From an uncultured virus (IMG/VR IMGVR_UViG_3300037329_000040) (taxonomy: Duplodnaviria > Heunggongvirae > Uroviricota > Caudoviricetes), in the IMG/VR virus record IMGVR_UViG_3300037329_000040: 37,043 nt of DNA. The stretch is one strand, 5' to 3'. Made by a program: the position numbers and the translations under genes. Below the pieces are notes generated by a model. It searched no databases. It saw nothing but the letters and a program-made list of their open reading frames with translations, and was not told where the DNA came from. Shown here in pieces: positions 5,224 to 33,502 of the stretch (positions within the stretch are counted from its first letter, which is position 1; every line of letters begins with the position of its first letter).

Positions 5224-5250
5224 TGCTCCTTATTTATATTCTTTGCGGGC

Positions 5251-18308: not shown

Positions 18309-18333
18309 GTACTACAGTATAACACTATTAATT

Positions 18334-18587: not shown

Positions 18588-18599
18588 ATGAAAGGTTGT

Positions 18600-18730
18600 T
18601 GTTTGTTATTATATATATTAATTCTTATTAACTATTATATAGTTTATTGAATTTATTTATATATAGTTTATATATAGATATATATATTATAGTAATATAG
18701 TAATAAAGTAAATATAATTATATAAAATCG
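18600..18730. other. Extremely AT-rich non-coding tract (candidate unwinding element)
   Basis: Almost only A/T, with TATATA runs. Confidence 0.5.
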
Positions 18731-18734
18731 AACT

Positions 18735-19031
18735 TTATTCTTTATTTCCCAGATATGTGATTAGTTTGTCATAAAGCTTGTCAACTTGTTTCTCCAAGTG
18801 ATCTACCTTTTTATAGGTTTCTGCTTCCAGGCTTTCCTGGTTATCTTGCCGCGCTTCGAGTCTATTCATCTGATCCTTTATGGACGTACCGCCGTTTGTC
18901 TTTAACTCGTGCTTAATCTCTTGAAAATAGTGTTTTACTAACCAACGGACCCCGAGACCAAAAGCGGTAAGAATTGTGGAGACCGATACTACTAGTGTTA
19001 GCCACATAGCCGCTGTTTCGGAAACATTCAT
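18735..19031 (-). CDS. Single-TM plus coiled-coil membrane protein (start corrected to MNVSETAA)
   Basis: Hydrophobic helix followed by a NGG.S.KD...R.E coiled-coil pattern; possibly lysis-associated. Confidence 0.65.
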   Translation of the reverse strand: MNVSETAAMWLTLVVSVSTILTAFGLGVRWLVKHYFQEIKHELKTNGGTSIKDQMNRLEARQDNQESLEAETYKKVDHLEKQVDKLYDKLITYLGNKE

Positions 19032-19231
19032 AATATAACAATTATAGCTCGCGTTTTTTAATTTTTCGGTATTTAGTTCGGCGCGATAAGAGACACCCAA
19101 CCCCAACATACGTATGATAAACACTGGCTTACGCCTGTGAGCAAATACGATACGGGGTTAATATCTCAAAAGCTTTTTTATAATAGCAACTATCCCTGAT
19201 ATAATGGACATATAGAAGAATTGAGAACCTA

Positions 19232-19438
19232 TTGAAAGACAATGGCGACGTAGAATTTAGTGACATCTTTGATCCCAGACAACCTCGAAGTGACAAAGCT
19301 TTGATAGAAGAACGTTTGGCCATATGCAATGGTTGTCCATGGTTCAATAAGAGATTAGCTAAGTGTAAGAAGTGTGGTTGTTTTATGAAACTTAAGAGTA
19401 GTTTAAAGCAAGCTAGTTGTCCTATAGGTAAATGGTGA
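19232..19438 (+). CDS. Cys-rich Zn-binding protein (DUF6171-like)
   Basis: Paralog of 10756..11016. Confidence 0.75.
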   Translation: MKDNGDVEFSDIFDPRQPRSDKALIEERLAICNGCPWFNKRLAKCKKCGCFMKLKSSLKQASCPIGKW

Positions 19439-19662
19439 TTGATGCTTAAGCCATCAGAGATGACTTTGTACCTGAAAAAATAAAAAATTAGGTTGTGCTT
19501 GACTTATATATGCTTATAGTCTATAATATTTAGATAAGGTTTACTTATATTAGATTATAATCCATAATCACATTCACAAGGCTTTCCTTTTATTCCACAT
19601 CCTTGACATTTCATAGCTAATTATATCAGATCAAGGTTATGTACCTTGCATTATATGTCTAT

Positions 19663-19771
19663 GTTATGAGATTGTTATTCAATATACCCAATCGTTACCA
19701 AAACGTTATCATATACGTCATTTCGTTACCAAATTGTTATAATATATATCATTTCGTTATCAAATTGTTAT
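19663..19771. repeat. Four GTTAY-N6-GTTAT boxes with an exact 31-bp period (MtrA-like)
   Basis: Starts at 19663, 19694, 19725 and 19756. Confidence 0.85.
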
Positions 19772-20029
19772 AATACAAATATTGACAGATCTGAATATGT
19801 ATGATATAAGGCAAAATCTGAAAAAATCTATATTTAGCAAAATCTGAATTTTGACTAGTAGGGAACCATACGCACTCACAGCAGAATATTCCCAATTGTT
19901 AGTCCGCACACTCCTGGCGTCATAAAAACAATTGACCCGTACGCCCTATAAAGTAATGCACCCCTGCCAGGTTGTAGAAAACCTACAAAGGAATGGCTAA
20001 AACTTTGTAGGATAAATCTTTTTGTTTAT

Positions 20030-20070
20030 CGGCGTGTCGACTTGACTTTTTGAGGTTTAGGGTATAGTCT
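20030..20070 (+). promoter_or_regulatory. First early promoter: CGGCGTGTCG box plus TTGACT-N17-TAGTCT
   Basis: The same box abuts -35 elements at 20582, 20703, 21358, 21613, 21826 and 22422. Confidence 0.8.
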
Positions 20071-20106
20071 TTAGGTATAGATAAAGAAACATAGAAAGGA
20101 TAAAAA

Positions 20107-20241
20107 ATGTTTTTAGATTCAATTTCAACCTCCGTAGGTTTCTGCGAGATTTGCTCCAATGCAACACCACAGGTGTTCGTTGAGGATTTCGGACAGGAAT
20201 GTTGCGAAATCTGCTACATCGCTTACGGCGAATGTAACTAG
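20107..20241 (+). CDS. 44-aa Zn-finger-like early protein (MFLDSISTSVGFCEICSN...CCEICYIAYGECN)
   Basis: GAAAGGATAA RBS; paralog of 21698..21808. Confidence 0.75.
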   Translation: MFLDSISTSVGFCEICSNATPQVFVEDFGQECCEICYIAYGECN

Positions 20242-20295
20242 ATAAAGTCTTACCCTAGTGGTAAGCTTTTAGTATCTTAGAAAGGATAAAGTAAA

Positions 20296-20460
20296 ATGAA
20301 TAGATTCAAAGAATTGGATACGCTGTCACTATCAGACATCGAGGTGGAAATTGAAACAATGATTTCTATCGTAGGTGATACCCCTAGTGATAGTGAAATC
20401 AAATACATTAGCGGTCTAATGGTAATGGCTAACACCCTAGGTTCAACGAGAGGCTGGTAA
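20296..20460 (+). CDS. 54-aa hypothetical early protein
   Basis: GAAAGGATAA RBS; promoter variant at 20246. Confidence 0.7.
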   Translation: MNRFKELDTLSLSDIEVEIETMISIVGDTPSDSEIKYISGLMVMANTLGSTRGW

Positions 20461-20542
20461 CATAATGATAACGCTCACTTTTGATACTTGGGAGGACTAT
20501 GACAACGCTATTGCTGGAATTGCTAGTGTTGTAACCGAAATG

Positions 20543-20573
20543 AATACCCCAGAAAAATAGGGGTATTTTTTTT
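20543..20573 (+). terminator. Intrinsic terminator after the small ORF 20465..20560
   Basis: AATACCCC/GGGGTATT stem plus T-run. Confidence 0.7.
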
Positions 20574-20644
20574 CCATTCATCGGCGTGTCGACTTGACAA
20601 ATTTTCGATCGTGGGCGGGTCCTAGTGGTCTAATGCCCTTATGA

Positions 20645-20660
20645 CCACTATATGTAGTGG
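20645..20660. promoter_or_regulatory. NrdR-box-like palindrome CCACTATATGTAGTGG
   Basis: Resembles acaCwAtATaTwGtg; a second TAGTGG half-site lies 32 bp upstream. Confidence 0.45.
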
Positions 20661-20775
20661 CCTATAAACCCCTGGAGCGTTACCAAACTGTTACATAATA
20701 CACGGCGTGTCGGCTTGACTTTTCAGCTGTAAGGTGTAGACTCTAACTATACAAAGAAAGATAAAGGATAAAGAA

Positions 20776-20916
20776 ATGAAGAAGATTTTTGTTAGCAAAG
20801 AAAATGACTCAATGGTTAGCTTTAGTGCAAGAGCGGATAATGTTGATAACGCTATTGCTAAGCTTGAGGGGATGGGCTACACCATCCTAATGGTAACTGG
20901 TAATGAGTCCATCTAA
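20776..20916 (+). CDS. 46-aa hypothetical early protein
   Basis: AAAGGATAA RBS, own promoter. Confidence 0.7.
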   Translation: MKKIFVSKENDSMVSFSARADNVDNAIAKLEGMGYTILMVTGNESI

Positions 20917-20918
20917 AA

Positions 20919-20940
20919 TGTCAGACCCCTATGGTAAGGT
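20919..20940 (+). promoter_or_regulatory. Representative TGTC-N12-TANNNT (PafBC/RecA-NDp-like) promoter; 19 copies through 33019
   Basis: TGTCAG-ACCCCTATGG-TAAGGT; invariant spacing in all copies. Confidence 0.85.
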
Positions 20941-20946
20941 AGAACT

Positions 20947-21081
20947 ATGAAGAAATCAAGAATGAATAAAGAAGAAAAAATGTTTTACTCAACAGTCCTA
21001 GCGGGCATCAAGTCTGGCAATAAGCCAGTAGGTGCAGCTTGGCTTAGGTGGATAGACTTGCAGCTTAGCAAGACATTCTAA
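20947..21081 (+). CDS. 44-aa basic leaderless early protein
   Basis: ATG 6 nt after the -10 of the 20919 promoter. Confidence 0.65.
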   Translation: MKKSRMNKEEKMFYSTVLAGIKSGNKPVGAAWLRWIDLQLSKTF

Positions 21082-21133
21082 ACTGTCTGACCCTAGTACT
21101 AAGATAAACATACAACAAGAAAAGGATAAGCTA

Positions 21134-21268
21134 ATGATAGTAGAAATAGAATTGAATGACGGCACAACAATTACCCCTGTATACTCTCCAGAGCACTATG
21201 ACGATGTAGTCAACTGGTGTACTGATCAGTACATCAAGGGCGGTATAGTATCTTGGATGGTGCTCTAA
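21134..21268 (+). CDS. 44-aa hypothetical protein
   Basis: AAAGGATAA RBS; coupled to the small TM ORF 21268..21357. Confidence 0.65.
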   Translation: MIVEIELNDGTTITPVYSPEHYDDVVNWCTDQYIKGGIVSWMVL

Positions 21269-21425
21269 TGGATAACCTAACCATAGTGTCAATAGCTATA
21301 ACTCTAGTGTCTATTGTATTGTTAGTAATGTTTGCTACCTGGCCTATAAAAAAATAGTGGCGTGTCGTGTTGATAATGTCTCACCTATGCACTATGCTAT
21401 AGATATACAAACAAAGGATAAAGAA

Positions 21426-21575
21426 ATGACAAAGTCAAAAAGAATTAGCGTATACGCCATCTGCCTAGCAGGCACAGCTTACCTAGCCTACCTATTGCTT
21501 AGGGTTGCATCACTAGGCTACACTTGGAACTGGATTTGGAACGAAGACTTTGCAAGCCGTCTAGGTAGCCTATAA
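21426..21575 (+). CDS. Small membrane protein (start corrected to MTKSKR)
   Basis: AAAGGATAA RBS; hydrophobic helix. Confidence 0.7.
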   Translation: MTKSKRISVYAICLAGTAYLAYLLLRVASLGYTWNWIWNEDFASRLGSL

Positions 21576-21697
21576 CCGTTACCGTTTTGTTATAAAAAAC
21601 TTTCGCCAAACACGGCGTGTCGACTTGACTTTTGGGAGATATGGTATAGACTAATAGTATAAATAAAGATAAAGAAATAAAAGAAAGGAAGTAAAAA

Positions 21698-21808
21698 ATG
21701 ATTGATTTCAAATTTTGCGAAATATGTTCAAACACTGTTCCAACTGTAGAGGTTGAAGGTGAAACCGCTTGCGTAAATTGCTACGAAGCGTACGGCGAGA
21801 TAAACTAA
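21698..21808 (+). CDS. 36-aa Zn-finger-like protein (MIDFKFCEICSN...CVNCYEAYGEIN)
   Basis: AGAAAGGA RBS; paralog of 20107..20241. Confidence 0.75.
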   Translation: MIDFKFCEICSNTVPTVEVEGETACVNCYEAYGEIN

Positions 21809-21979
21809 ATAGTTTATTTCTCCTTCGGCGTGTCGCTTGACATTTGCCGAATTTTTTGCCGGGCACATTTTGATCAAGAAAAAGCATTTAAGAAGAAGGT
21901 TAAGAACACCTACAAACTCCCCTACAAAATGTCAGACCCCTGGTGTAGGATTATCTTATAATCGAAAGGATACCAACCA

Positions 21980-22024
21980 ATGGCTTGTAATTGTGAAGAT
22001 AGACCTTGTTGCGGCTGCAACTAA
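21980..22024 (+). CDS. 14-aa Cys-rich micropeptide MACNCEDRPCCGCN
   Basis: Own promoter (21930) and CGAAAGGATA RBS. Confidence 0.65.
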   Translation: MACNCEDRPCCGCN

Positions 22025-22074
22025 AATGTCAGACCCCTGTGCTAAGATAAACCTATAACCAGAAAAGGATAATA

Positions 22075-22206
22075 ATGAATTGTGGATTTTGTAAGTTTGC
22101 TAAGGCAACTGAGGCTGTATTGCTAATAGACGACACAGTGAACGCACTGTGCCCAAAGTGTGCCTTTAGCGTTGAAGAATTTACTGTGAATGTGGGGTGT
22201 TTGTGA
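22075..22206 (+). CDS. 43-aa CxxC/CxxC protein
   Basis: Promoter at 22027; AAAGGATAATA RBS. Confidence 0.65.
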   Translation: MNCGFCKFAKATEAVLLIDDTVNALCPKCAFSVEEFTVNVGCL

Positions 22207-22487
22207 GACACTACTTCAGTAACTTTCTAGATGATGACTGTATTCGCTGTGAGGAATGCGGAAGCAATTCCTATACCGCTCCAGTCGTGTGCCCTGGTAA
22301 AATGTAGCAGGTCGTATTCCAGAAATGGAATGCCGCCCGGGCGCTTTGTTGCCACAATAAAACGTTTAAGAACTAACCACTACGATCCTTGGATCTTTTT
22401 TGTAACAAAATGATAACGTTACGGCGTGTCGTTTGCATAATGTCTGCCACCTGTGATAGGTTATACATATAACGCAAAGGATGACTA

Positions 22488-22682
22488 ATGACAAAAATGT
22501 ATCGCAAGACCACCTGCAACGGCTGTGGATTTACTCAGACAGCTACCTTGTCTTACTACCTTGACGCCAAGGCGTGGAGGGCTAGCCACACCCTAGCCGT
22601 TCACAACGAGCTATGGGATAAGAAAAACGATTTGGCTAGGGGAGAGTTCTTAGACTTTCTTCTTGCTGGCAGAGTTGCCTAA
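22488..22682 (+). CDS. Hypothetical early protein (CxxC)
   Basis: ORF track; composite promoter at 22402-22462. Confidence 0.7.
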   Translation: MTKMYRKTTCNGCGFTQTATLSYYLDAKAWRASHTLAVHNELWDKKNDLARGEFLDFLLAGRVA

Positions 22683-22734
22683 AATGTCTGACCCCTATGC
22701 TAAGATAAACTTACAAACAGAAAAGGATAAATAA

Positions 22735-22917
22735 ATGCCATACAACGCCAAAGGTTATGACCTCGCAGAAACCAGCTTGAAATTGCTAAAAGAGGAGTTC
22801 GGTCTAGCTTCTTCTTACGCTAAAATGACTGGCTATCTTATTGCCAGCGTTTCAGAATCAGACGCTGAAAGAATACTTGAAATAGTAAAGCAGTCAATTT
22901 CAGAGAGGGCTGAGTAA
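22735..22917 (+). CDS. Hypothetical early protein
   Basis: Promoter at 22685; AAAGGATAA RBS. Confidence 0.7.
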   Translation: MPYNAKGYDLAETSLKLLKEEFGLASSYAKMTGYLIASVSESDAERILEIVKQSISERAE

Positions 22918-23079
22918 ATGTCTGACCCAAAAGAAATAGAGTTTGACGAATTCCTAGACGAGCTTTTTCCACCTTATCAAATTGGAGGTTTTAGATTCTA
23001 TGCCTCACAGGTGCTAAAGACTCTTGACCCAATAGCCTACAGGATTTCCTTTTCAGAATACGAGAGCGATAATGACTAA
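22918..23079 (+). CDS. 53-aa acidic phage protein (FDEFLDE...DPIAYR)
   Basis: Directly follows the previous stop; open frame. Confidence 0.65.
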   Translation: MSDPKEIEFDEFLDELFPPYQIGGFRFYASQVLKTLDPIAYRISFSEYESDND

Positions 23080-23364
23080 GCAGATGACTACAGAAGAACT
23101 CGAACAACTTATTTTCAAAATAGACTTGATGTTGTCAGATAATCCTGATAGACTATTCGTAACGAAAGAAGGTAGCTGATGATTTTTTACAATGGTTTCA
23201 ACTTGCTAGTAGACATAATCCTAGTATCTGCGGCAGTCCTTATCACTCTTGGCTATGCTAAGCGTAAGTATTTCTCAACTAAGCGAGAAAGTTTTATTCC
23301 TCCTTTTTAGGGGGTAATAAAGGGGTGAGATCCTGAAACGATCTAACCAAGCCACCCAACAAAG

Positions 23365-23412
23365 ATAGCACCTAGAGAGTTATTATCCTTTCGCTCTGGG
23401 TGCTATTTTTTT
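23365..23412 (+). ncRNA. Anti-RBS stem-loop A1 (also terminator-like)
   Basis: 13-bp stem, 16-nt loop AGTTATTATCCTTTCG, followed by a T-run. Confidence 0.7.
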
Positions 23413-23518
23413 GCCCCCGGCCCCTTTTTATTCCTGGCAGAAAGTTTTTAAGAAGTCAATTAAGAACACCTCCAAAACTCCCTAGAAAAATGTCTTACCC
23501 CTGATGTATAGTGTAACT

Positions 23519-23782
23519 ATGGAAGATGGAACTTACAGATACGAGAATGCAGCGTTCACACCTATCCAGGAAATTTTTGGGTATTGGGTTGCTAAAGAAG
23601 AAATAGCCCGTGACGAAATAGAAGATGGTATGACTATTGGTGTTTGGACTGATAAAGACGGCAGACTTTGGATAGATAGAAGTTATCATCTGTCTGACTT
23701 GGTGCCCGCAATCGCTCTAGCCCAAGTTTGGAATCAGAAAGCAATCTATGACATTGCCAAGAATGAAGCAATAAATGTCTGA
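23519..23782 (+). CDS. Hypothetical protein, leaderless (MEDGTY...)
   Basis: ATG 6 nt after TATAGT; G.W.D......D...A..L.....QKAIYD pattern. Confidence 0.7.
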   Translation: MEDGTYRYENAAFTPIQEIFGYWVAKEEIARDEIEDGMTIGVWTDKDGRLWIDRSYHLSDLVPAIALAQVWNQKAIYDIAKNEAINV

Positions 23783-23803
23783 CCCCTGTGCTATAGTTTC
23801 ACT

Positions 23804-23968
23804 ATGAGCAAATTAGGAAGATACAACGAGGCAAGGCGCAAGGTTGAAAGCCAAGCGTTATTTTACAACATACTAAAAAACCCCCACCTAGTAGCGCAGG
23901 TCGATAAGTATAAGGGTTCAAGGCAGTCTAACAACTATAATGCTATCAAAGAAAGTAGGAGTGAATAA
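23804..23968 (+). CDS. 54-aa basic leaderless protein
   Basis: ATG 6 nt after the -10 of the 23776 promoter. Confidence 0.6.
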   Translation: MSKLGRYNEARRKVESQALFYNILKNPHLVAQVDKYKGSRQSNNYNAIKESRSE

Positions 23969-24139
23969 TGGCTAAAACACTATTTTGGGGAAAGACTAGT
24001 TGCGACACTTGCGATCGTGTTATGCATGATGCCCAAGTCTATTACTTTGATTCCCGACACTTATGCCTAGTTTGCTATGCCAGCGAACAAAATGTCTTAG
24101 CCCTAGTGTAAGCTTATCTTATAACCGAAAGGATACAAA

Positions 24140-24334
24140 ATGGCAAAATACGATGTAGTAGTTCAACTAACAGGTCGTGATGGAAACGCTTTTGCGGTAA
24201 TGGGAGCGGTAAAGTCTGCACTAAAAAAGTCTGGAGCAACCGCTTCAGAAATTAGCGAGTATCTTTCTGCCAGTATGTCGGGAGACTACGACAACCTTTT
24301 GAGGGTTGCTATGGAATACGTGGAGGTAAAATAA
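24140..24334 (+). CDS. Conserved phage protein (DGNAFA.MG...SGDY..LL family)
   Basis: Recognisable motif; CGAAAGGATA RBS. Confidence 0.75.
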   Translation: MAKYDVVVQLTGRDGNAFAVMGAVKSALKKSGATASEISEYLSASMSGDYDNLLRVAMEYVEVK

Positions 24335-24603
24335 TGGGAATGATGACAGCGATAGAATTGCAAGAGCAAGGCATGAGCCTAGAGAATCAGATAGCTATTC
24401 ACTTTAGTAGTAATTGCTATCCCCCAATTCCGCATCAAATGATACCTACGGCAATAACAGCTATTGACGCTTATTGGGAAGATGAATTAGATAAACTAAT
24501 ACCGTTGCCGCAAGGTGTAAGCTTTAGGGGCAATACCGAGGTGTCTGCCAGGAACGTAATCAATTCATACTACTTAGGCGCATGGTGTTCGGAAGATAGT
24601 TGA
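24334..24603 (+). CDS. Hypothetical protein
   Basis: TAATG-coupled; H...N.YPP.P motif. Confidence 0.7.
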   Translation: MGMMTAIELQEQGMSLENQIAIHFSSNCYPPIPHQMIPTAITAIDAYWEDELDKLIPLPQGVSFRGNTEVSARNVINSYYLGAWCSEDS

Positions 24604-24654
24604 CAAACAGCTGAGAACATGCTAAGCTATAATCTATAACCCCTACAGAGAGAC

Positions 24655-25188
24655 TTGCCCCAAATGCTAGAAACTTACATTGAGAAATACTCCAAGCTTG
24701 TATCCCAAGCAACCCTAGGCCAAGTTGAGCAAGCAGCAATTTGGTACATGGACGCTGAGCGCATTGCTGAAAAAGTAGCAATAAACTTAGGGACCACCTT
24801 AGAGATAGGGGCCAGTGTTGTAAGTTCATTCTCACCTCGAGAGCGGTGGACCATGAACATCGCTAGGGCCATAGCATTCTCACTAGGGCAAGAGGTCCGC
24901 TGCCTAAAGAATAACATCCGTATGGCCGAGAAATCACTCACTGACGGGTTTGGTGCCCTAAAAGGCCTAAAGACTAATGCATTCGCCAAGGCTATTGCAG
25001 GTGACCAAGAGCAAGTTGTGATAGACGTCTGGATGATGAAAGCCGTTGACCACGCCAAGTCCTCACCTAGCCAAAGTGACTATTATGCACTTAGCCAAGC
25101 AGTAAAGGCAGTTGCCAAAATCCATGGCCTAACACCTAGAACAACCCAAGCAATTATCTGGATAGTAAAGAGAGGTTCACATGAATAA
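24655..25188 (+). CDS. Conserved phage protein, DUF7178-like (possible DNA glycosylase-like fold)
   Basis: WY...SP...W..N...G.K..AF..AI.GD...V.ID.W...P...QA..W motif series; TTGACA promoter at 24600. Confidence 0.55.
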   Translation: MPQMLETYIEKYSKLVSQATLGQVEQAAIWYMDAERIAEKVAINLGTTLEIGASVVSSFSPRERWTMNIARAIAFSLGQEVRCLKNNIRMAEKSLTDGFGALKGLKTNAFAKAIAGDQEQVVIDVWMMKAVDHAKSSPSQSDYYALSQAVKAVAKIHGLTPRTTQAIIWIVKRGSHE

Positions 25189-25336
25189 GGTAACTCCAAT
25201 TAGGACAGAGAGTCAACACCCAGCATTGCTAAGTATGCGCAATAAGATAATTAGCCTCGAGGAAAGCATCGTTGATATGCAACGTCAACTAGACTTCATG
25301 AGAATAGAAATTACTAAGCTTCAGTAGGGGTACTGA

Positions 25337-25364
25337 CGTCCTGGCCATGACGAAAAACTGGCTA
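25337..25364 (+). ncRNA. H-type pseudoknot in a 3' UTR, copy 1
   Basis: CGTC/GACG plus TGGCCA/TGGCTA; covaries with 26460..26488. Confidence 0.6.
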
Positions 25365-25636
25365 TTTTTTTCTGTCTGTGCCCGCCCCCTTTTGCCACAG
25401 AAATCAATTAAGAAGATCTACGAAAACCCCCTACAAACTTTGTAGGTTTTCTACTTGACTTTCATCAACAGATAGGGCATACTAGTATTAGTTGAAAAGG
25501 GAAAAGCAAGACAGAAGTTGTTACCAAAAAGTTATCAAATAGACTTGACAAACACCCTTTCATCTGCGATAATAGACCTATCAACAAATCGTTGGTAATA
25601 ATCAAGACAGTCCCTCTGGGGCGGTAAGGAAGCAAA

Positions 25637-25783
25637 ATGAACGAAGTAACTGTTGGCTCACAGTTCACCACAGCAAAGTCTGGCGTTACAGGCATTGTTC
25701 AGGAAGTAGTAAAGAACACTAATGGCACTTACAGAGTTCGACTTGATGTTTCTGGTCAAGAGCGTTGGACTACTGTAAAGTAG
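25637..25783 (+). CDS. 48-aa beta-rich (SH3-like) protein
   Basis: AAGGAAG RBS; two SigA promoters upstream (25455, 25545). Confidence 0.65.
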   Translation: MNEVTVGSQFTTAKSGVTGIVQEVVKNTNGTYRVRLDVSGQERWTTVK

Positions 25784-25794
25784 TATCATTAGAC

Positions 25795-25836
25795 TTGGGG
25801 AAGATAGAGTTATTATCCTTTCGCTATCTTCCCCAA
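25795..25836 (+). ncRNA. Anti-RBS stem-loop A2
   Basis: Perfect 13-bp stem unrelated to A1; identical 16-nt loop. Confidence 0.7.
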
Positions 25837-25989
25837 TAAAATAACTAAACATAGGGGTGGTGTAGGACTACATAAGAGCAGTAAGATAGAGTCCTTATAC
25901 GACTATTGCCACCACCCCATAAAATGTCCTACCCCTATTGTATAATTACTAAGTAAGCAAATAACCCCTAATGAAAGTAGAACCCTATA

Positions 25990-26436
25990 ATGGCTAGAAG
26001 CATTTCCGTAAAAATCCCAACAGCTCTCCTAATCGCAGAAATTGAAGCAAAGATTGCAAGCATTGACGCATCAGTTGAAAGCTATGAAGATGACTTGGCA
26101 AAGTATGAGGTGGACAAAGAGCAGTATCGCAAAGACCTAGCTGTTGCAATTAGCAAAGTTATGTTGAATAGCGATACCATTGGCTATGAGTATGACGCTC
26201 CAATTCGTGTTGTTACCTATGGAGATAGTCGTATTCAGATTGAGTTCAAGCCAAGTGCAGTAGCTGGAATACCTGAGATGCCACAACAGCCACAAGAGCC
26301 TAACAGGAAAATGTGGTATGGTCGTGAATACTACTCTCCAAAAGAAATGCTCCAGAAAAACCTCAAGGTATTGCGTATGACCACCCAAGAGGAAGTATCT
26401 GGCTCAACCTATGGGGCGTTGATAGAGTTCCTATAA
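25990..26436 (+). CDS. Hypothetical coiled-coil protein
   Basis: 148-aa ORF; promoter at 25925. Confidence 0.75.
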   Translation: MARSISVKIPTALLIAEIEAKIASIDASVESYEDDLAKYEVDKEQYRKDLAVAISKVMLNSDTIGYEYDAPIRVVTYGDSRIQIEFKPSAVAGIPEMPQQPQEPNRKMWYGREYYSPKEMLQKNLKVLRMTTQEEVSGSTYGALIEFL

Positions 26437-26459
26437 ACCTGCAAAGGTTTAGGGAAAAT

Positions 26460-26488
26460 GACCTGAGTATGTCTAGGTAAACTGCTCA
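26460..26488 (+). ncRNA. H-type pseudoknot in a 3' UTR, copy 2
   Basis: GAC/GTC plus TGAGTA/TGCTCA. Confidence 0.6.
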
Positions 26489-26549
26489 CCCTAAAGTGTC
26501 TGACCCCAATGCTAGTCTGTATGTATAACCAAGGAAGCAGGTATCCCAA

Positions 26550-27053
26550 ATGGGAACACGCAACATAACTAAGGTAATCAAAGATGGCAACACAGTAGTT
26601 TCTCAGTATGGACAATGGGACGGATACCCTGAGGGACAGGGCGTTACCGCTCTAAACTTTATCCGTAACCCTGAGATGATTGAACTACTAACCCATAACA
26701 TTGACAACCTATACACGATGAGTGATACAGTATGGGCTTTAGAGATTGATAAGATTCAGAAAGCAAATCTTGACGATAAGGAGTTTGAAAAGCTCTGGCC
26801 TACTATGTCAAGAAACACTTGCGCAGACATTCTAGAAGTGATTGCTACTAGTGATGGAATGTTGCCTATTGTTCTAGACCTAGAATTTGAGTTTGATGAG
26901 CTAATGTGTGAAGGTATCTATACCCTCAATTTAGATAACAGAACCTTTGTTTCTACCTATGAAGGAATTACTCTCGTTCTCACCTTTGATGAGATACAGG
27001 CAGGACTAACCAACGATGACTATGTTTGGGCGTTCACTTTAGAAAAAGCATAA
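26550..27053 (+). CDS. Conserved phage protein (MGTR...Y..WDGYP family)
   Basis: Motif recognition; promoter at 26497. Confidence 0.7.
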   Translation: MGTRNITKVIKDGNTVVSQYGQWDGYPEGQGVTALNFIRNPEMIELLTHNIDNLYTMSDTVWALEIDKIQKANLDDKEFEKLWPTMSRNTCADILEVIATSDGMLPIVLDLEFEFDELMCEGIYTLNLDNRTFVSTYEGITLVLTFDEIQAGLTNDDYVWAFTLEKA

Positions 27054-27216
27054 GCAACACGCCGATCCCCTGGACTTGACATCTGGGGGATCTGGCCCCC
27101 GGGCCCCTCGTTACCAAAACGCAATTAAGAAGAAGAAGAAAAACCCCTCCAGGGCTTGCATAATGTCACCCCCTTGGTGTATAGTAGTACTATCAAACAA
27201 AGAGAGAAGACCCCTT

Positions 27217-28212
27217 ATGTCGCACGAAATTGAAACAGTAAATGGCCAGTCCGCATTCGCATCACTACGTCAGCCTGCATGGCATGGATTGGGAACCGTA
27301 TTTGATGAGGAAGTTACAACCAAGGAAATGCTAGACCTAGCACACCTTTCAGATTGGAACGTCCGTCTAGAAGATGTTGCAATTCCCGAAGGCTTTGCAA
27401 GTGACAAGAGCTTTTCTTTTGTTACACGCACTAACCCTTTTGACAAAGAGCAGAACGATGTTCTAGGCGTGGTTGGTGAGCGTTATGTTCCATTGCAGAA
27501 CGAAGACTTGTTTGACTTTGGAGACCTAATGTTGGATGGTGGAGGACGTTGGGAGACAGCTGGCTCTATCAAGGGTGGCCGTCAAGTATTCGGTTCTCTG
27601 GCTCTTGAGCGTGAGAGTATCTTAGACCCTAGTGGCGTAGCCGATAAAGTCAACACGTATTTGCTAATCAACACAAGCCACGATGGTTCAGTTGCCATCC
27701 AAGCTTCTATTACTCCAGTTCGTGTTGTATGCGCTAACACTCTCAACTTTGCTCTTAGGGGTAAAGCTAAGCAGTCCTTCAAGATTAGGCACACAGCAAC
27801 CGCTTCTGGCAAGGTTCAACAAGCTCGTGAGGCACTTGGATTAGCTAACAAGTACATGGATGAGTTTGACCTTATGGCACAGCAGATGATTGAGTCAGAA
27901 ATCTCTAAAGCCAAGTTTGACAAGATTGTTGCTTTGGCATACCCTGCACCAGTAGGCGAAGATAAGAAGGGTTCGTTCAAGAAGTATGGAACGAAGATTG
28001 ACGTAATCAACTCTATTTACTACAGCGATACAACCGCCATGATTAGTGGAACGGCTTGGGGCGCTCTAAACGCCATGACAGAACGTTTGGATTGGTATCG
28101 CACAGCTCGTGGTGGTTCCAATGAGTCTATCTTGGCTTCCGCTTCTGGCTTTGACCCAATGATAAATGCAGAGAAAAACCGTTTGCTTCAGTTGGTATTA
28201 GCCAACGCATAG
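27217..28212 (+). CDS. DUF932 / phage-plasmid TIGR03299-like protein
   Basis: PAWHGLG, LGVVG.RY...QN, ETAGS..GG, SHDGS, TPVRVVCANTL, RHT, GTAWG..NA..E motifs; start corrected to MSHEIE. Confidence 0.9.
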   Translation: MSHEIETVNGQSAFASLRQPAWHGLGTVFDEEVTTKEMLDLAHLSDWNVRLEDVAIPEGFASDKSFSFVTRTNPFDKEQNDVLGVVGERYVPLQNEDLFDFGDLMLDGGGRWETAGSIKGGRQVFGSLALERESILDPSGVADKVNTYLLINTSHDGSVAIQASITPVRVVCANTLNFALRGKAKQSFKIRHTATASGKVQQAREALGLANKYMDEFDLMAQQMIESEISKAKFDKIVALAYPAPVGEDKKGSFKKYGTKIDVINSIYYSDTTAMISGTAWGALNAMTERLDWYRTARGGSNESILASASGFDPMINAEKNRLLQLVLANA

Positions 28213-28228
28213 CAAAACGAAAAGCAGG

Positions 28229-28257
28229 TGGCCTTCCCAAAACTGGGAGGGCCATTT
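28229..28257 (+). terminator. Hairpin terminator after DUF932
   Basis: TGGCCTTCCCA-AAAC-TGGGAGGGCCA. Confidence 0.65.
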
Positions 28258-28310
28258 GACTTTCACGAAGATCTGTGCCCGGCCCCACTTTTGATAATAA
28301 ATAATATATA

Positions 28311-28353
28311 TAGTTATCAAAAAGACTTTAAGAAGAAGGGTAAAAACCCCTCG
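28311..28353 (+). repeat. 43-bp perfect repeat of 30212..30254 (partial third copy near 30276)
   Basis: TAGTTATCAAAAAGACTTTAAGAAGAAGGGTAAAAACCCCTCG. Confidence 0.9.
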
Positions 28354-28421
28354 AGAGGTACTTGCATAATGTCTGACCCCCATGGTAGTATTGATTTATC
28401 AAAGAAAGAGAGAGACCCCCA

Positions 28422-28619
28422 ATGACCTATGTACTCAGACCAGAATCATACGTTTCAGAAGATGGCAACTACGGTAGTGGCATGCTGCTTACCTTTTCTT
28501 ATGACCAGCTAACCGAAGACCAGTGGGGTGTTCTTGACACCCTAGCCGACAGCGATAAAATGTCGTATGCCGTTGCTATACTAAAGGGACACGAAGACCT
28601 ATCAGAATGGGAAGACTAA
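28422..28619 (+). CDS. Acidic hypothetical protein
   Basis: Promoter at 28370; GAAAGAGAGAGA RBS. Confidence 0.7.
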   Translation: MTYVLRPESYVSEDGNYGSGMLLTFSYDQLTEDQWGVLDTLADSDKMSYAVAILKGHEDLSEWED

Positions 28620-29223
28620 TGGCTGAAGTAACTATGGGCAGCACCTGGACTAATTTCTTTAGTATGCCAGTTATAACTAATAACGATACCCTGGAGGATG
28701 AAGATGAATCTTGAATACTGGCAAGGTGTGTATGATACCTGTGAGTATCTTAGAGATGAATTGGGCCTTGAGGGGATGATGGATACTCATATGGCTGTTC
28801 AGGCTATTGAGGAGCTAGGGCTATGAGTGAGTACCGTATATATTCTGATGGCACACTTTATCTAAATAAGATAAAGGCTGATAGGCTATACGACGTATAT
28901 CGGTGTGTCGGTTGCGGTAAGTCTTGGAGGTCTACCGCTAATAAAATGGGACACAAAGAGGCTACCTGCAGGAGGTATCGTTGACAGTATCAAAGGCTAA
29001 GGCCAGACGTGATGGAACCTATGTTCATGTTCCTAAAATGTCATACCCTACCCCTACAATAGGAACTATGAAAACAACAAAGCCATGTCCCAACCACGAA
29101 GGTGCCTTTGATTGCACACCATTCTGTAACAAGTGTGAAGGAGAGCAAGAGTATAATGTCTGAGGGTAATGATAGACTAGAGGAACTAACAGACGAAGAA
29201 CTACTACACTTAGGGAGAAGCTA

Positions 29224-29409
29224 ATGTCAGAAACAGGATACTTTTTTAGTAAGAAACAGGCTGCTATGATTGCAGAACTAATTGCTCAGAAGGTAGAGGA
29301 AGACCATTCCAAATACCATTGTCTAGTAGAAGCGTATGACAAGCTAACTAGAGGTTGGACTTGGAAATCAGATGACCACGAAGCAAGAAAGCTAGAGGAC
29401 GCAAAATGA
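29224..29409 (+). CDS. Hypothetical protein
   Basis: GGGAG RBS; ORF track. Confidence 0.65.
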   Translation: MSETGYFFSKKQAAMIAELIAQKVEEDHSKYHCLVEAYDKLTRGWTWKSDDHEARKLEDAK

Positions 29410-29513
29410 GTGCTTGGACAGACGGTAGCATAATCAACGAAGATGTGTTGAATAGCCTAACCAAAGAGCAACTAGATAAACTAGCAGAGATGTTGAAAGA
29501 CGTATAACCCAAG

Positions 29514-29786
29514 ATGAAAATTCGCAAAAGACAAAGTAGGGAGACTACCTTGACGTTTATGACTAAAGAGTTTACCAAGCTTGACCAGTTCCTAGACTAC
29601 ATGGTTAGTCATCTCTATACTCTCTATGATGAGGTAGACCAGATAACTTGGGAGGACATTGAGTTTGAATACCTGAGTGGTAGCATTGACACTACCCAAC
29701 ACTACCTTGCCAAGTGTGGTAAGGACTACATGGCGCTCAACCAATACCAGGAAATCTTGGAGGAACAAAAATGGAAAAATTCATAG
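29514..29786 (+). CDS. Acidic hypothetical protein (start uncertain)
   Basis: ORF track. Confidence 0.6.
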   Translation: MKIRKRQSRETTLTFMTKEFTKLDQFLDYMVSHLYTLYDEVDQITWEDIEFEYLSGSIDTTQHYLAKCGKDYMALNQYQEILEEQKWKNS

Positions 29787-29986
29787 AGACTGATAGGAAC
29801 AACGTTGAGTTCCATCGCCGACTCTGGTCAGAGATAGCCAAAGAGAATGGTTGGTACAACGAACCGTTCTACGTCCAAACATTCCAAAACGAGGCAGGTG
29901 AGATTTGGGACAGTGTTAGCAGTCGCGACATGACCCAGGACCGCGTATACCTCGGAGAGGAATTTGACGGCGAGGATGACGACTGA
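29771..29986 (+). CDS. Acidic hypothetical protein
   Basis: GGAGG RBS. Confidence 0.7.
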   Translation: MEKFIETDRNNVEFHRRLWSEIAKENGWYNEPFYVQTFQNEAGEIWDSVSSRDMTQDRVYLGEEFDGEDDD

Positions 29987-30358
29987 GGAGAAGGTCCCCA
30001 CGGGTAGGTAAAGAAGACTTTGAATAAACAACAGACAGGGAGACACACAATGGAAGATGAATACGTCGTAGAGCTATTTGAGATGGCTGAGAAGGGTGAG
30101 ATTTCTTACCAAGAGCTGAACATGGAATTGGAGACAGGTGGCTTTGACGGCGACCTGATCGATTTCCTCTAGCAGGACCCTTCGGGGCCCGGGTCTCTAT
30201 AACAGTATTAGTAGTTATCAAAAAGACTTTAAGAAGAAGGGTAAAAACCCCTCGGGTCCTTCTATCAAGACTATTAGTTATTAAAAAGACTTTAAGAAGA
30301 AGGTTGACAACCCCCTAGGATCATGAGACAATAGAGTATCAAAGAAAGTAGGATTTCA

Positions 30359-30529
30359 ATGGCGGAATACACCGTAAGTATTTATGAAAAGATTGCTCAC
30401 ATTGTAGACGTAGAAGCTGAATCAGAAGATGAAGCATACGACAAAGCCTACGAGGCTATCTCTTTGGGTAAGCCCTATGACATCGAAGCTGTGGAATTTA
30501 CTGGTGAGTGGAGAGCAGAGCTTAGCTAA
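30359..30529 (+). CDS. 56-aa acidic protein (VEAESEDEA motif, DpnD/PcfM-like)
   Basis: AGAAAGTAGGA RBS; TTGACA promoter at 30304. Confidence 0.65.
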   Translation: MAEYTVSIYEKIAHIVDVEAESEDEAYDKAYEAISLGKPYDIEAVEFTGEWRAELS

Positions 30530-30580
30530 AATGTCAGACCCCACTGTTATAATAAAAGTATAAACGAAAGTAGGATTTTA

Positions 30581-30811
30581 ATGGATCAGAAGGTATACGC
30601 AGATCGTAAGCCACGGGTATCTGAGGTAGGATCATGGAACAGGATCTTTCATAACGAGGACATCTCAGTCTATGAGGCTAGTAATTTTTATGATTACTAC
30701 AAGACTGTTACTCGTGCTAAGAAGACTAAGTACTTCTTTGGAGAGACTGCCTGGATGAGTACCCAGAGATTTGTCTTATCGCTCAGCCTCTCCGCTTACT
30801 CTATTTTCTAA
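30581..30811 (+). CDS. Hypothetical protein (FFGETAW motif)
   Basis: Promoter at 30532; GAAAGTAGGA RBS. Confidence 0.7.
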   Translation: MDQKVYADRKPRVSEVGSWNRIFHNEDISVYEASNFYDYYKTVTRAKKTKYFFGETAWMSTQRFVLSLSLSAYSIF

Positions 30812-30876
30812 AAAGACTTGACAATGGCCGCTGCCTATGTCATACTTGACACATAACCCCAAGAGATAGGAACCCC

Positions 30877-31410
30877 TTGCACGTACTTCAAAACATAGCT
30901 ATTCAAGCAGACGACTCCGAGCATGCCTTTCGTTCTGTACAAGAGGGACTAGAAGCAAAGCTAGGGGATGACCCCTACTCCGATAGTAATACATGGTTTG
31001 ATTGGTTTGTTACTGGTGGTGGACGGTTCTCTAGTAGTGAGGACCCTTACAACGATAACTACATGGATGATGTTGTAAAGCAAGATACCCCAGAGTTTGT
31101 GGACAGGCTTACTCAGTCTATGACTAATCGCAGTACAGAGATGTCTGAGTATCTAGTTAGTGCAGAAAAGATTGACTACAAGGCTCTGCTTGTCTCTTTG
31201 AGGGGAGCAAGCTCTGGTAACCCTGACTACAAGGTAATGTCTGACCTCTACTCTATCAAGAAGCTCTATGACATGGCTGGTGGACTTTGGGACTTCAACT
31301 CATACTTCTATGACATGCATAACGACAGCACAAGTATGCAACCCATGCAAAAAAGTATTGACAATGGCGACAAGACGTGGTACATTGTACCTGTAGACTT
31401 CCACTTCTAA
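30877..31410 (+). CDS. Conserved phage protein (MH...WFDW...GGR...VDFH family)
   Basis: Motif pattern; TTGACA promoter at 30818. Confidence 0.7.
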   Translation: MHVLQNIAIQADDSEHAFRSVQEGLEAKLGDDPYSDSNTWFDWFVTGGGRFSSSEDPYNDNYMDDVVKQDTPEFVDRLTQSMTNRSTEMSEYLVSAEKIDYKALLVSLRGASSGNPDYKVMSDLYSIKKLYDMAGGLWDFNSYFYDMHNDSTSMQPMQKSIDNGDKTWYIVPVDFHF

Positions 31411-31419
31411 GGAGACCCC

Positions 31420-31812
31420 ATGACTACATACGAAAGTTTGACCTACACTCAGTGGGAAGAAAAGTTCAAGCCAGTCACTAATCATCTTACCAAGCAACCT
31501 GACTCTATAATCTTTGAGACGTATGGTGAAGACTGGGAGCACCTTGCTGGTATAGATAATCATTTCATCTGGACGTTTGGAGACTCAGGTGGCTGTAGCT
31601 ACATTAGCAATGGACAGCATTGGGTAAACAGGTTGCACTATCACATCACAGAGATACCTTGGGAAGAAGACGTGTCCTATGACATCACTGTCAGCACCGA
31701 TGAAGACTGCGAGTGCTACGATGAGTCGCGTATGGAAGCAAACGAAGAACCAGGAAATCCAGATTGCATAGAGTGTGAAGGCTCAGGACTGATTACGGTG
31801 TACAATGATTAA
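31420..31812 (+). CDS. Hypothetical protein (FETYG...VNR..Y.ITE.PW, C-terminal CxxCxG)
   Basis: AAGGAG RBS. Confidence 0.7.
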   Translation: MTTYESLTYTQWEEKFKPVTNHLTKQPDSIIFETYGEDWEHLAGIDNHFIWTFGDSGGCSYISNGQHWVNRLHYHITEIPWEEDVSYDITVSTDEDCECYDESRMEANEEPGNPDCIECEGSGLITVYND

Positions 31813-31993
31813 TACTATAGCTACAAACCTTACTTTGCAAAACGTCAGCATGGAGTTGATTAGAAAGCAGAGAAGGTTACTCAACCTGTTAACAATGGGA
31901 GAGAAAATTACAGAAGACCAGATGGACCTAGTCTATGCATTCTTAGATTGCTTAGATGATGCCATATGGAATAAGGCAGGGGAAGAGAACTAA
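31805..31993 (+). CDS. Hypothetical protein
   Basis: Overlap-coupled ORF. Confidence 0.55.
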   Translation: MINTIATNLTLQNVSMELIRKQRRLLNLLTMGEKITEDQMDLVYAFLDCLDDAIWNKAGEEN

Positions 31994-32376
31994 TGCAAAC
32001 CAATGAGCACGACGTTAACGTATACGTAGATAATGATATCGTAAAGATAGTATGCTACAGGATGATGGTTGATAGCGAAGGAGAGTTGGTGGCCACAGAT
32101 ACCCAGAGTGAACCTAAGATCTTTGCCATCTCCATTAATGAAACGGACCCTGAGCTTAAAGAGATCCTGAGGTTTGCATTAGATGCTGAGTACTATGATT
32201 CTGTAGAAGAGAAAGAAGACTGGGTAGCATTGCATGGTTCATGGCAGTCATACTGGGCAGGCACAGATACTTGGGAATCTAGTACCACCTTCTCAAAGAA
32301 TGCCACTCCGATCCTGGCGTCTTTCTTGGACTCACTTCCTTTCTACGAGCCTAAGACTTTGGCATACAACAACTAA
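31993..32376 (+). CDS. Acidic hypothetical protein
   Basis: TAATG-coupled. Confidence 0.65.
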   Translation: MQTNEHDVNVYVDNDIVKIVCYRMMVDSEGELVATDTQSEPKIFAISINETDPELKEILRFALDAEYYDSVEEKEDWVALHGSWQSYWAGTDTWESSTTFSKNATPILASFLDSLPFYEPKTLAYNN

Positions 32377-32456
32377 TTAAATAAAGATTGACAGAGTCGA
32401 GCCTAGCTCCTTTGTCATAGCGGACAACGTGGTTAGGGGTAACTAGTTGTCCGCAC

Positions 32457-32497
32457 TGGAGGTGTTGAGGGTTCCTACTTTCTCCTTGACACCTCCA
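32457..32497 (+). ncRNA. Anti-RBS stem-loop B (third of three tandem hairpins)
   Basis: 14-bp stem, loop GTTCCTACTTTCT; the 3' arm contains the TTGACA of a TTGACA-N17-TACAAT promoter. Confidence 0.65.
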
Positions 32498-32531
32498 ACC
32501 ATTTTTGGTACAATAGGACAATAGGAGAATA

Positions 32532-32756
32532 ATGAAACGAAGCCTGACAAAAGACCAAGTGGTCGCAAAGAGAATTGCTGAAATGGTCAGTGATGTTACA
32601 TTGGACTTAGACGAGGTAGGGAAATCTATTGCAAACGCTCACCCAACAGTTATCTATAACAGGTTAGTTTTACTTGCAGAGGCTGCCGTAGAGGAAAAGA
32701 CTACAGAAAAAGGACATTCCAGTTTGAACAATTACCTAGAGGAAAGAGGTTTCTGA
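32532..32756 (+). CDS. Hypothetical protein
   Basis: AGGAG RBS; promoter at 32486-32514. Confidence 0.7.
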   Translation: MKRSLTKDQVVAKRIAEMVSDVTLDLDEVGKSIANAHPTVIYNRLVLLAEAAVEEKTTEKGHSSLNNYLEERGF

Positions 32757-33016
32757 TGGCAGAGACAGAGTTTACAGTCAAGACAGAAATGTTGGCAGAC
32801 CTATGGTTGAACTATAAAGACGACCCAGAGTTCTTAGACTTCATCTCATACAACGATTTGGGGTTACCGCTTTCATACATGCTTGCTAATCTAATCGTTC
32901 TTCCTACACCATTAGCAACAACGTTTGTAGAAGAAACGTTTGTTCTTTTGCTTGCCGCAATGGAAATTCCAGAAGATGAAGGGTTCGAGTCGCTAGACGA
33001 TTTGTTCTCTATCTAA
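32756..33016 (+). CDS. Acidic hypothetical protein (YNDLGLPL motif)
   Basis: Coupled ORF. Confidence 0.7.
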   Translation: MAETEFTVKTEMLADLWLNYKDDPEFLDFISYNDLGLPLSYMLANLIVLPTPLATTFVEETFVLLLAAMEIPEDEGFESLDDLFSI

Positions 33017-33077
33017 AATGTCAGAGGGTGGAGTTATAATGAGTTACATCAGAGATAAGAAAACGGAGAATACTAAA

Positions 33078-33341
33078 GTGGCTGACGAGCTAGACACTAC
33101 AGAACTACGGGAGAAATGCTTTATACTATCAGAATACTTCTTGCCAGTATTTGAAGACTTCTGGACTGAGGAAGGCAAGGTTGTAACTGAAGATGTGCGC
33201 TTTGCTTTATTCACGAATGGACTAACCTTTCAGATTGCTTTTGCTGTTGAGTATGACTTGATTAGTGTTGAGGGATTGTCTCAAGAAGCTATTGACGACA
33301 TCAACGAGGCTCACGCTCACCTAGTTAGTTTGTCAGGGTAA
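33078..33341 (+). CDS. Acidic hypothetical protein, distantly similar to 32756..33016 (start corrected to GTG)
   Basis: The track's ATG lies inside the 33019 promoter motif; GGAG RBS precedes the GTG at 33078. Confidence 0.6.
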   Translation: MADELDTTELREKCFILSEYFLPVFEDFWTEEGKVVTEDVRFALFTNGLTFQIAFAVEYDLISVEGLSQEAIDDINEAHAHLVSLSG

Positions 33342-33502
33342 CCTGTCATTCTTTCTGGGTGACCAGGCCCCGGCCACCTATCTCCATAACCACCATATAA
33401 ACAATAAAGGTATTAAGAAGCATTAAGAAGACACCTCTACGATCGTGAGTTTTTATTGATAAAAGACTTGACATTGATAAAGATCTAAGCTATACTATAG
33501 TT

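Follow-up and report, generated by a model that had tools for sequence, protein, structure and literature searches.

An array of predicted PafBC-type promoters ahead of small genes in an uncultured actinophage

The array and its anatomy

The window analysed here is the whole 37,043-nucleotide stretch of IMG/VR record IMGVR_UViG_3300037329_000040, which derives from an uncultured virus of the Caudoviricetes, and our subject is an array of sites of the form TGTC-N12-TANNNT that runs along its plus strand from 20919 to 33040. The plus-strand half of the window consists of small open reading frames (ORFs) nearly without family matches, the exceptions in Pfam being DUF7178 and DUF932, and it is ahead of such ORFs that the sites stand. 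The window holds 25 matches to the pattern against 6.13 expected from 100 dinucleotide-preserving shuffles (standard deviation 2.36, maximum 12, with none of the 100 reaching 25). An initial annotation had listed 19 coordinates and interpreted them as early promoters with the geometry of the host DNA-damage activator PafBC; all 19 are among the matches, on the plus strand and with invariant spacing, and the AGTC variant it placed at 20246 on the same strand is real. One further plus-strand match inside the block, at 28561, was absent from its list, and five more lie outside the family fit (16850, 16871, 35291 and 35965 on the plus strand, 25529 on the minus strand).

A leave-one-out weight matrix spanning motif positions -4 to +30 gathered 17 sites, at 16 to 43 bits, into one tight family that comprises every site listed below except 23133, 28561, 29039 and 33019, so that three of the original 19 (23133, 29039 and 33019) are weak. 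On the minus strand of the window no matrix match reached 8 bits, and 20 mononucleotide shuffles yielded 0 to 2 matches of at least 8 bits per strand. The 21 block sites aligned for the counts below are the 19 first listed together with 20246 and 28561; start sites (+1) are predicted and scores are matrix bits.

20246..20267, plus strand: AGTC variant, first of the array; predicted +1 at 20274; heads ORF 20296-20460 (54 amino acids); 28.2 bits
20919..20940, plus strand: TGTC-type; predicted +1 at 20947 is the ATG of ORF 20947-21081, predicted leaderless; 39.8 bits
21084..21105, plus strand: TGTC-type; 22-nucleotide leader, ORF 21134-21268; 28.2 bits
21377..21398, plus strand: TGTC-type with upstream TTGATA; ORF 21426-21575; 16.0 bits
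21930..21951, plus strand: TGTC-type; 14-codon cysteine-rich micro-ORF 21981-22025; 36.1 bits
22027..22048, plus strand: TGTC-type; 20-nucleotide leader, ORF 22075-22206; 42.8 bits
22441..22462, plus strand: TGTC-type with upstream TTGCAT; ORF 22488-22682; 26.1 bits
22685..22706, plus strand: TGTC-type; ORF 22735-22917; 40.3 bits
23133..23154, plus strand: weak member without the C-tract, upstream TTGATG; ORF 23179-23310; -0.1 bits
23491..23512, plus strand: TGTC-type; predicted +1 at 23519 is the ATG of ORF 23519-23782, predicted leaderless; 32.7 bits
23776..23797, plus strand: TGTC-type; predicted +1 at 23804 is the ATG of ORF 23804-23968, predicted leaderless; 30.8 bits
24093..24114, plus strand: TGTC-type; ORF 24140-24334; 30.8 bits
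25925..25946, plus strand: TGTC-type; ORF 25990-26436 (148 amino acids); 17.5 bits
26497..26518, plus strand: TGTC-type; ORF 26550-27053 (167 amino acids); 28.2 bits
27164..27185, plus strand: TGTC-type with upstream TTGCAT; DUF932 gene (ATG 27217 to 28212); 26.0 bits
28370..28391, plus strand: TGTC-type with upstream TTGCAT; ORF 28422-28619; 32.3 bits
28561..28582, plus strand: doubtful; overlaps a canonical TTGACA-16-TAAAAT promoter at 28534-28561; 9.9 bits
29039..29060, plus strand: weak member; ATG at 29068, one base past the predicted +1; 0.7 bits
29157..29178, plus strand: TGTC-type, with G-tract GAGGGT replacing the C-tract; ORF 29224-29409; 20.9 bits
30532..30553, plus strand: TGTC-type; ORF 30581-30811; 36.8 bits
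33019..33040, plus strand: weak member with G-tract; sits on the ATG of ORF 33018-33341 (alternative GTG at 33078); 3.6 bits

The family consensus, [A/T]AAA-TGTC-W-G-ACCCC-t-n-TG-n-TAnnnT-N6-A(+1), is far longer than the motif first described. G2, T3, C4, T17, A18 and T22 occur in 21/21 sites, partly through selection by the search pattern, and the T preceding GTC in 20/21, so that with A29 taken as +1 the invariant GTC triplet lies 13 bases upstream of the -10 hexamer, at -27 to -25, in every site. The block is preceded by an A-rich flank (A at positions -4 to -1 of the motif in 20, 14, 20 and 18 of the 21), position 5 is A or T in 19, and position 6 is G in 13. After G6 comes a box that begins with A in 19/21 sites and continues as CCC in 16, 16 and 17 of them, a run of G standing in its place at 29157, 33019 and, in part, 23133. 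T14 (14/21) and G15 (13/21) place a TG one base ahead of TAnnnT, forming an extended -10. Downstream of the hexamer, five unconstrained bases are followed by TAT (16, 18 and 14 of 21) and then by a purine-rich leader; A29, seven bases past the -10 and present in 18/21 window sites, is the predicted start, which sets TGTC at -28 to -25, GACCCC at -23 to -18, ACCCC(T) at -22 to -17 and TG at -15/-14. A -35-like hexamer (TTGCAT or TTGATA-like, 18-nucleotide spacer) was found at five sites (21377, 22441, 23133, 27164 and 28370), and the remaining 16/21 lack one, as the initial annotation had said of most.

The predicted +1 coincides with the A of the ATG at 20919, 23491 and 23776, whose ORFs have 44, 87 and 54 codons, so the mRNAs there are predicted to be leaderless. 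Most of the remaining sites precede their ORF by an 18-25-nucleotide leader with an AAAGGA-type ribosome site, in agreement with the earlier description of each site as standing before a ribosome site or a leaderless ATG. The TAA inside cTAAAATGTC often terminates the ORF before it, and the units are therefore packed end to end. The cysteine-rich micro-ORF at 21981-22025 on the plus strand (MACNCEDRPCCGCN) has a TGTC promoter and ribosome site of its own and lies between two full promoters 97 bases apart.

Related phages and the probable host lineage

Neither near nor distant DNA searches against the phage collection gave a close relative, and G001, the nearest record, covers just the first two sites in a fragment of 19.9 kb. 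At least 143 IMG/VR stretches contain the strict motif AAATGTCWGACCCCT-N4-TANNNT, and the matches listed comprise 80 loci on 70 contigs by manual count. Across 138 unique IMG/VR sites from the matches listed, T14 recurs in 116, G15 in 115 and A29 in 112, all columns that the search had left free, and no column upstream of -4 exceeds 0.18 bits, i.e., there is no -35. Five related genomes of 97-111 kb (G002 to G006, two with terminal repeats) each hold a motif cluster on one strand. The window matrix recovered 14 sites in G003 (30.6-39.7 kb), 10 in G002 (90.4-96.9 kb) and 4 in G006 (70.2-74.0 kb), genomes of 100-111 kb, and in these three found none outside the clusters or on the opposite strand. 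G003 and the window are mosaic, with about 90% identity across much of 20.2-31.5 kb. The 117 ORFs of at least 80 amino acids in G003 encode DnaE, DnaB, a primase, RecA, NrdIEF and Cpn10, and among them we found no integrase, sigma or WYL protein.

The nearest matches of the DUF932 protein (54% identity) and of the G003 portal protein (47-48%) are in Streptomyces phages of the BE cluster. In one Streptomyces phage, Peebs, the gene strand has six TGTC-N12-TAGACT/TAGAGT sites in each terminal repeat (record positions 1-11248 and the second repeat), 22-52 nucleotides ahead of annotated genes, five of the six with a TTGnnn -35-like hexamer one base upstream. Its gene strand has 21 matches genome-wide against 7 and 10 in controls, and roughly half of the approximately 12 TAGACT-type promoters in the repeat have TGTC at the PafBC position. 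Such sites in the Peebs terminal repeats suggest that this phage lineage has carried the -26 element for a long time. Cultivated Planktophila phages were considered as relatives and ruled out, being 39-kb phages with a sigma factor of their own according to PMC10202952.

WhiB is encoded in 5/5 related phages and, among 14 control genomes, only in Corynebacterium. The NrdE of G003 shares 77% identity with freshwater Actinomycetota and Rhodoluna metagenome-assembled genomes (MAGs), 74% with Aquiluna and 73% with Candidatus Nanopelagicus, and the sequencing runs that contain the window are 24 DNA runs labelled salt lake metagenome, with no RNA run among those listed. On account of WhiB, these NrdE affinities and the metagenome labels, the virus is an actinophage and its host lineage that of an aquatic actinobacterium. 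The closest NrdE of all, at 84%, lies on a 23-kb contig (JBIPLL010000671.1) in a MAG titled Beijerinckiaceae and probably represents a mis-binned phage contig.

The initial annotation had named hosts lacking pafBC as grounds for looking to a phage factor instead. All five candidate-host genomes (one of the Rhodoluna, two of the Aquiluna and two of the Nanopelagicus lineage) carry an adjacent pair of WYL genes, whose products have WYL+WCX and HTH_PafC+WYL+WCX architectures and match the PafBC structures 6sj9 and 7p5x. In the PafB alignment R50 is kept, and the Rhodoluna and Nanopelagicus N-termini have arginine at the R46 position (by eye).

A putative PafBC-dependent class and its alternatives

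In the excerpts of PMC8635444 used here, the in vivo PafBC motif is tGTCgg(N10)tA(N3)T, of which the housekeeping -10 forms the 3' part and the bases at -23 to -28 the 5' part; R46 and R50 of PafB read the GTC, whose conservation among actinobacteria is strict, sigma region 4 is contacted by PafC, and PafBC promoters have no -35. The same excerpts report PafBC from nearly all species of actinobacteria, at levels that remain constant upon damage, and describe DNA that is bent at -18 to -23 in canonical open complexes and straight in the PafBC complex, and an excerpt of PMC11804915 reports activation of PafBC by single-stranded DNA. The phage sites share with PafBC promoters of Mycobacterium and other actinobacteria the GTC at -27 to -25, the lack of a -35 in 16/21 sites, the 12-base gap to TAnnnT, which the search pattern itself prescribed, and, in 13/21 sites, the G at position 6. 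Their spacing is equal to the base and their invariant letters are the GTC that PafB reads, which upholds the PafBC (RecA-NDp) geometry first proposed. They differ in that the phage has an array of about 20 within 13 kb ahead of tiny genes without assigned function, has A or T where the published motif has G at position 5, adds a strongly conserved ACCCC(T) at -22 to -17 and, in many sites, the TG of an extended -10, and depends on PafBC only putatively.

Comparison with the candidate hosts, which had been suggested for the sequences upstream of recA, extended the likeness. With the pattern read backwards as control and totals summed over genomes by hand, AAATGTC-N12-TANNNT matched 105 times against 32 in 41 genomes from the genus of G009 (a MAG titled Aquiluna) and 104 times against 27 in 41 genomes from the genus of G007 (titled Rhodoluna), where ATGTCNG-N10-TANNNT gave 246 against 62. 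Restricting position 5 to W gave no enrichment in five candidate-host genomes; the host motif varies there. By eye, position 6 is G in about 64 of the 104 matches in the genus of G007, and position 5 is variable. Recurrent host sites precede recA, genes for a UvrD plus PD-(D/E)XK helicase-nuclease (AdnAB-like) and DUF6504 (imuA'-like) genes. Core members of the mycobacterial PafBC regulon include recA, adnAB and the imuA'-imuB-dnaE2 cassette, to which these three kinds of host gene correspond. The Aquiluna recA promoter reads AAAATGTCAGACC-N7-TAGCTT or AAAATGTCTTAGAC-N6-TAGCTT, and those of Nanopelagicus and Rhodoluna recA read cGTC-N12-TAnnnT by eye. Three DUF6504 promoters have TGTCTGACCCTT or TGTCCGACCCCT, i.e., TGTC[C/T]GACCC[C/T]T, close to the phage consensus, and orthologues have CGAGGGGG, CGTGGGGT, GGTGGTCC or GGTGGCAG in the same place, several with a G-run instead of the C-run. 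The AAA flank of the phage sites is thus also found in Aquiluna and Rhodoluna DNA-repair promoters; what the host promoters conserve is AAA-TGTC-n-G and the -10, and the ACCCC is a phage addition.

We propose, with a probability of roughly 0.55, that the sites are promoters read by host RNA polymerase and its housekeeping sigma factor through host PafBC rather than through contact with a -35. Each step of the mechanism is extrapolated from the published mycobacterial structure. Sigma region 2 would read TAnnnT and sigma region 3 the TG two bases upstream, the winged helix of PafB would read the invariant GTC at -27 to -25, and PafC would bridge to sigma region 4 ("sigma adaptation"), with transcription starting at the conserved A seven bases past the -10 to give leaderless or 18-25-nucleotide-leader mRNAs for about twenty tiny genes. 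Since ACCCC is absent from the host motif, the tract needs a separate explanation, and since a G-run can substitute for the C-run in phage and host sites alike, DNA shape would fit better than base readout; the C-tract (G-tract at a few sites) at -23 to -18 may therefore be a DNA-shape element that keeps the spacer straight and disfavours the canonical -35 bend. Because PafBC is constitutive and responds to single-stranded DNA, the block would be switched on when such DNA arises from infection, from attack by nucleases on the incoming DNA or from phage replication.

The motif, the actinobacterial lineage, host pafBC and the host promoters all turned out as wiring to host PafBC would predict. 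What went too far in the initial annotation was the statement that most early genes depend on this motif: about 10 canonical promoters lie on the same strand as the array, so that two promoter classes are interleaved, and three of the 19 sites are weak. The canonical promoters span 18560..33496 on the plus strand and consist of TTGACA or TTGACT, a spacer of 16 or 17 bases, often TGn, and a TAnnnT-like hexamer; AAAAGAC precedes several of them. They lie at the following positions.

18560, plus strand: canonical promoter
19499, plus strand: canonical promoter
19782, plus strand: canonical promoter
24600, plus strand: canonical promoter
25545, plus strand: canonical promoter
30304, plus strand: canonical promoter
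30818, plus strand: canonical promoter
31358, plus strand: canonical promoter
32486, plus strand: canonical promoter
33468, plus strand: canonical promoter

Genes headed by this class include DUF7178 (24655-25188), a DpnD/PcfM-like ORF (30359-30529) and ORFs at 30877, 31420 and 32532.

Several observations weigh against dependence on host PafBC. The consensus is identical across phages of 37-43% G+C (guanine plus cytosine) that probably have different hosts, and the ACCCC tract is kept in 16-17 of the 21 phage sites while orthologous host promoters vary freely at positions 5-12. AAATGTC-N12-TANNNT is not enriched across 121 Nanopelagicales genomes (175 matches against 259 in the control), and the PafB of the Aquiluna MAG G009, the one genome checked, has lysine at the R46 position. 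The host is placed at the level of lineage, with pafBC examined in candidate genomes, and start sites, timing and induction are all deduced from the DNA. The interleaved canonical promoters could first express a phage activator, as in T4, and small phage proteins without detectable homology are possible readers.

These last points lead to the alternative that fares best, in which a phage-encoded adaptor or activator, MotA/AsiA- or PafBC-like in action and without recognizable similarity, reads TGTCWGACCCC and recruits host polymerase, the TGTC promoters forming a middle class switched on by the product of a canonical promoter. Conservation of the 11-base box as a unit across phages of differing G+C, when hosts keep only AAA-TGTC-n-G, is what such a reader would leave behind; the canonical promoters within the block leave room for a T4-like early-to-middle switch, dozens of tiny ORFs without family assignment could encode it, and PafBC is itself likened to T4 MotA/AsiA in the excerpts of PMC8635444. 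Yet the core, the spacing and the AAA flank are those of host DNA-damage promoters, a likeness that would be due to chance with an unrelated reader, the GTC that PafB reads is precisely what is invariant, and the exchange of G-tract for C-tract fits readout of shape over readout of bases. Searches for the protein itself were also negative, and speak against the phage-encoded PafBC mimic that had been offered as an option. WYL was found in 0/5 related phage genomes, as was Sigma70_r2 in six frames (a control found it in 10 of 14 genomes), so that these five relatives gave neither of the WYL or sigma-like genes for which a search had been advised. Pfam assigned no regulator and no sigma family among 65 window ORFs and no MotA or AsiA family among these and the 117 G003 ORFs, and the scanned phage ORFs held no other DNA-binding family. 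No PafB/C homologue emerged from profiles of host PafB and PafC (five proteins each, in full and as N-terminal parts), whose best E value was 0.011 over the 5590 stop-to-stop ORFs in G002, G003, G006 and the window. We regard a phage-encoded reader as unlikely, though it is the alternative to be taken most seriously.

It is quite improbable, in our judgement, that the sites are factor-independent extended -10 promoters whose upstream block serves as a repressor operator, a recombination module boundary or the stop or terminator of the preceding gene. Many actinobacterial promoters have no -35, and TGnTAnnnT alone can suffice in these bacteria according to the same excerpts; the TAA of cTAAAATGTC is, as noted, often the stop of the preceding ORF, and comparison of the window with G003 shows a mosaic array. 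However, the TG occurs in only 13-14 of 21 sites, and the block holds an exact 12-base distance to the -10 that an independent element would not need and matches host DNA-repair promoters. Least probable of all is a host factor other than PafBC, such as another WYL or winged-helix sigma adaptation factor, for which one could cite the suggestion in PMC8635444 (as excerpted) that sigma adaptation is perhaps widespread, the weaker third WYL match that G008 and G040 each have and the non-repair genes among motif-bearing host genes (NYN-domain, ARPP-1 and LysM proteins and indoleamine dioxygenase), but the motif heads recA, adnA-like and imuA'-like genes, the classic PafBC regulon.

Returning to host PafBC as the reader, we tentatively extend the proposal, at somewhat less than even odds, to a large aquatic actinophage family of worldwide distribution that launches small host-takeover genes through PafBC and has optimized a rigid G/C tract where canonical promoters bend, its consensus then representing an optimal PafBC promoter together with a DNA-shape rule for sigma adaptation; its cultured relatives, the Streptomyces BE-cluster phages, would use PafBC likewise, though in diluted form.

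Known systems, host loci and the remainder of the window

T4 middle promoters combine a MotA box at -30 with a sigma-70 -10, and the phage-encoded MotA and AsiA remodel sigma region 4. As in T4, a box near -30 replaces the -35, the -10 is that of the host sigma factor and many copies serve phage genes; T4, however, encodes its factors, whereas in the present case none turned up in the phage and the box is identical with the site of a host activator. Phage lytic promoters tied to LexA are found in coliphage 186 (tum) and Bacillus phage GIL01, and these phages likewise carry the site of a host DNA-damage regulator to couple expression to it. Theirs is a case of repression in temperate phages, whereas the present one would be activation by PafBC in a large and apparently lytic phage, no integrase having been found among the 117 ORFs of G003. 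CapW and BrxR are WYL regulators of anti-phage systems that respond to DNA damage or phage infection (PMC9122588 and PMC9122589, in excerpt); those control host defence genes, whereas here the phage itself is proposed to be the client of a WYL activator.

Literature searches returned no paper describing PafBC-type promoters in phages, and a cited study on pafBC and mycobacteriophage resistance (Rafique et al. 2025) may bear on the subject. If the proposal is true, this would be the first phage to use actinobacterial PafBC sigma adaptation for its own transcription, an activator counterpart of the LexA-wired prophages in which the LexA-independent damage or defence signal of the host becomes the ignition switch of the phage. 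It would show concretely how gene expression is programmed in abundant, uncultured actinophages of lakes and salt lakes that lack a sigma factor, and resistance of pafBC mutants to such phages is among its predictions. In the phage consensus one would also have a naturally optimal sequence with which to dissect the needs of PafBC-type promoters other than GTC, namely the flanking A-tract and a straight G/C spacer, and cultured Streptomyces phages provide systems in which the idea is directly testable.

Some further host loci carry the motif. The form AAATGTC[A/T]GAC..CTGACTAATAT recurs across lineages, and its copies in MAGs of the Rhodoluna genus (L282 and L283) may head an RNA gene; as PafBC promoters these two were rejected for want of a convincing ORF downstream and were not counted, because the translations there look like those of RNA genes. 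In the Nanopelagicales genome G040 a like site (L281) stands ahead of an indoleamine 2,3-dioxygenase gene. One contig of the Rhodoluna genus (L286; G185:C14:5500-22000) holds seven TGTC-N12-TANNNT sites in about 14 kb, five with the AAA flank, which precede, among others, genes for a 157-amino-acid NYN-domain protein and an ARPP-1 protein. A similar protein of 158 amino acids lies behind the motif in the Aquiluna genus (L269, in G162); it shares an HLIDIENLC stretch with the 157-amino-acid protein and has no Pfam match of its own, and from its sequence the region may be a PafBC-wired mobile or defence island.

Between the structural genes of the window and the array lies an AT-rich segment (18309-20245, about 35% G+C) without a blastn match in G003; the structural half has 42-48% G+C. 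The minus-strand half of the window encodes tail-fibre-like and lysis-type proteins (Mtd_N, collagen repeats, SLT), and the ORFs at 7101-9935 and 5251-7116 on that strand are tail-fibre-like proteins with Mtd_N (major tropism determinant N-terminal), He_PIG and glycine-rich domains.

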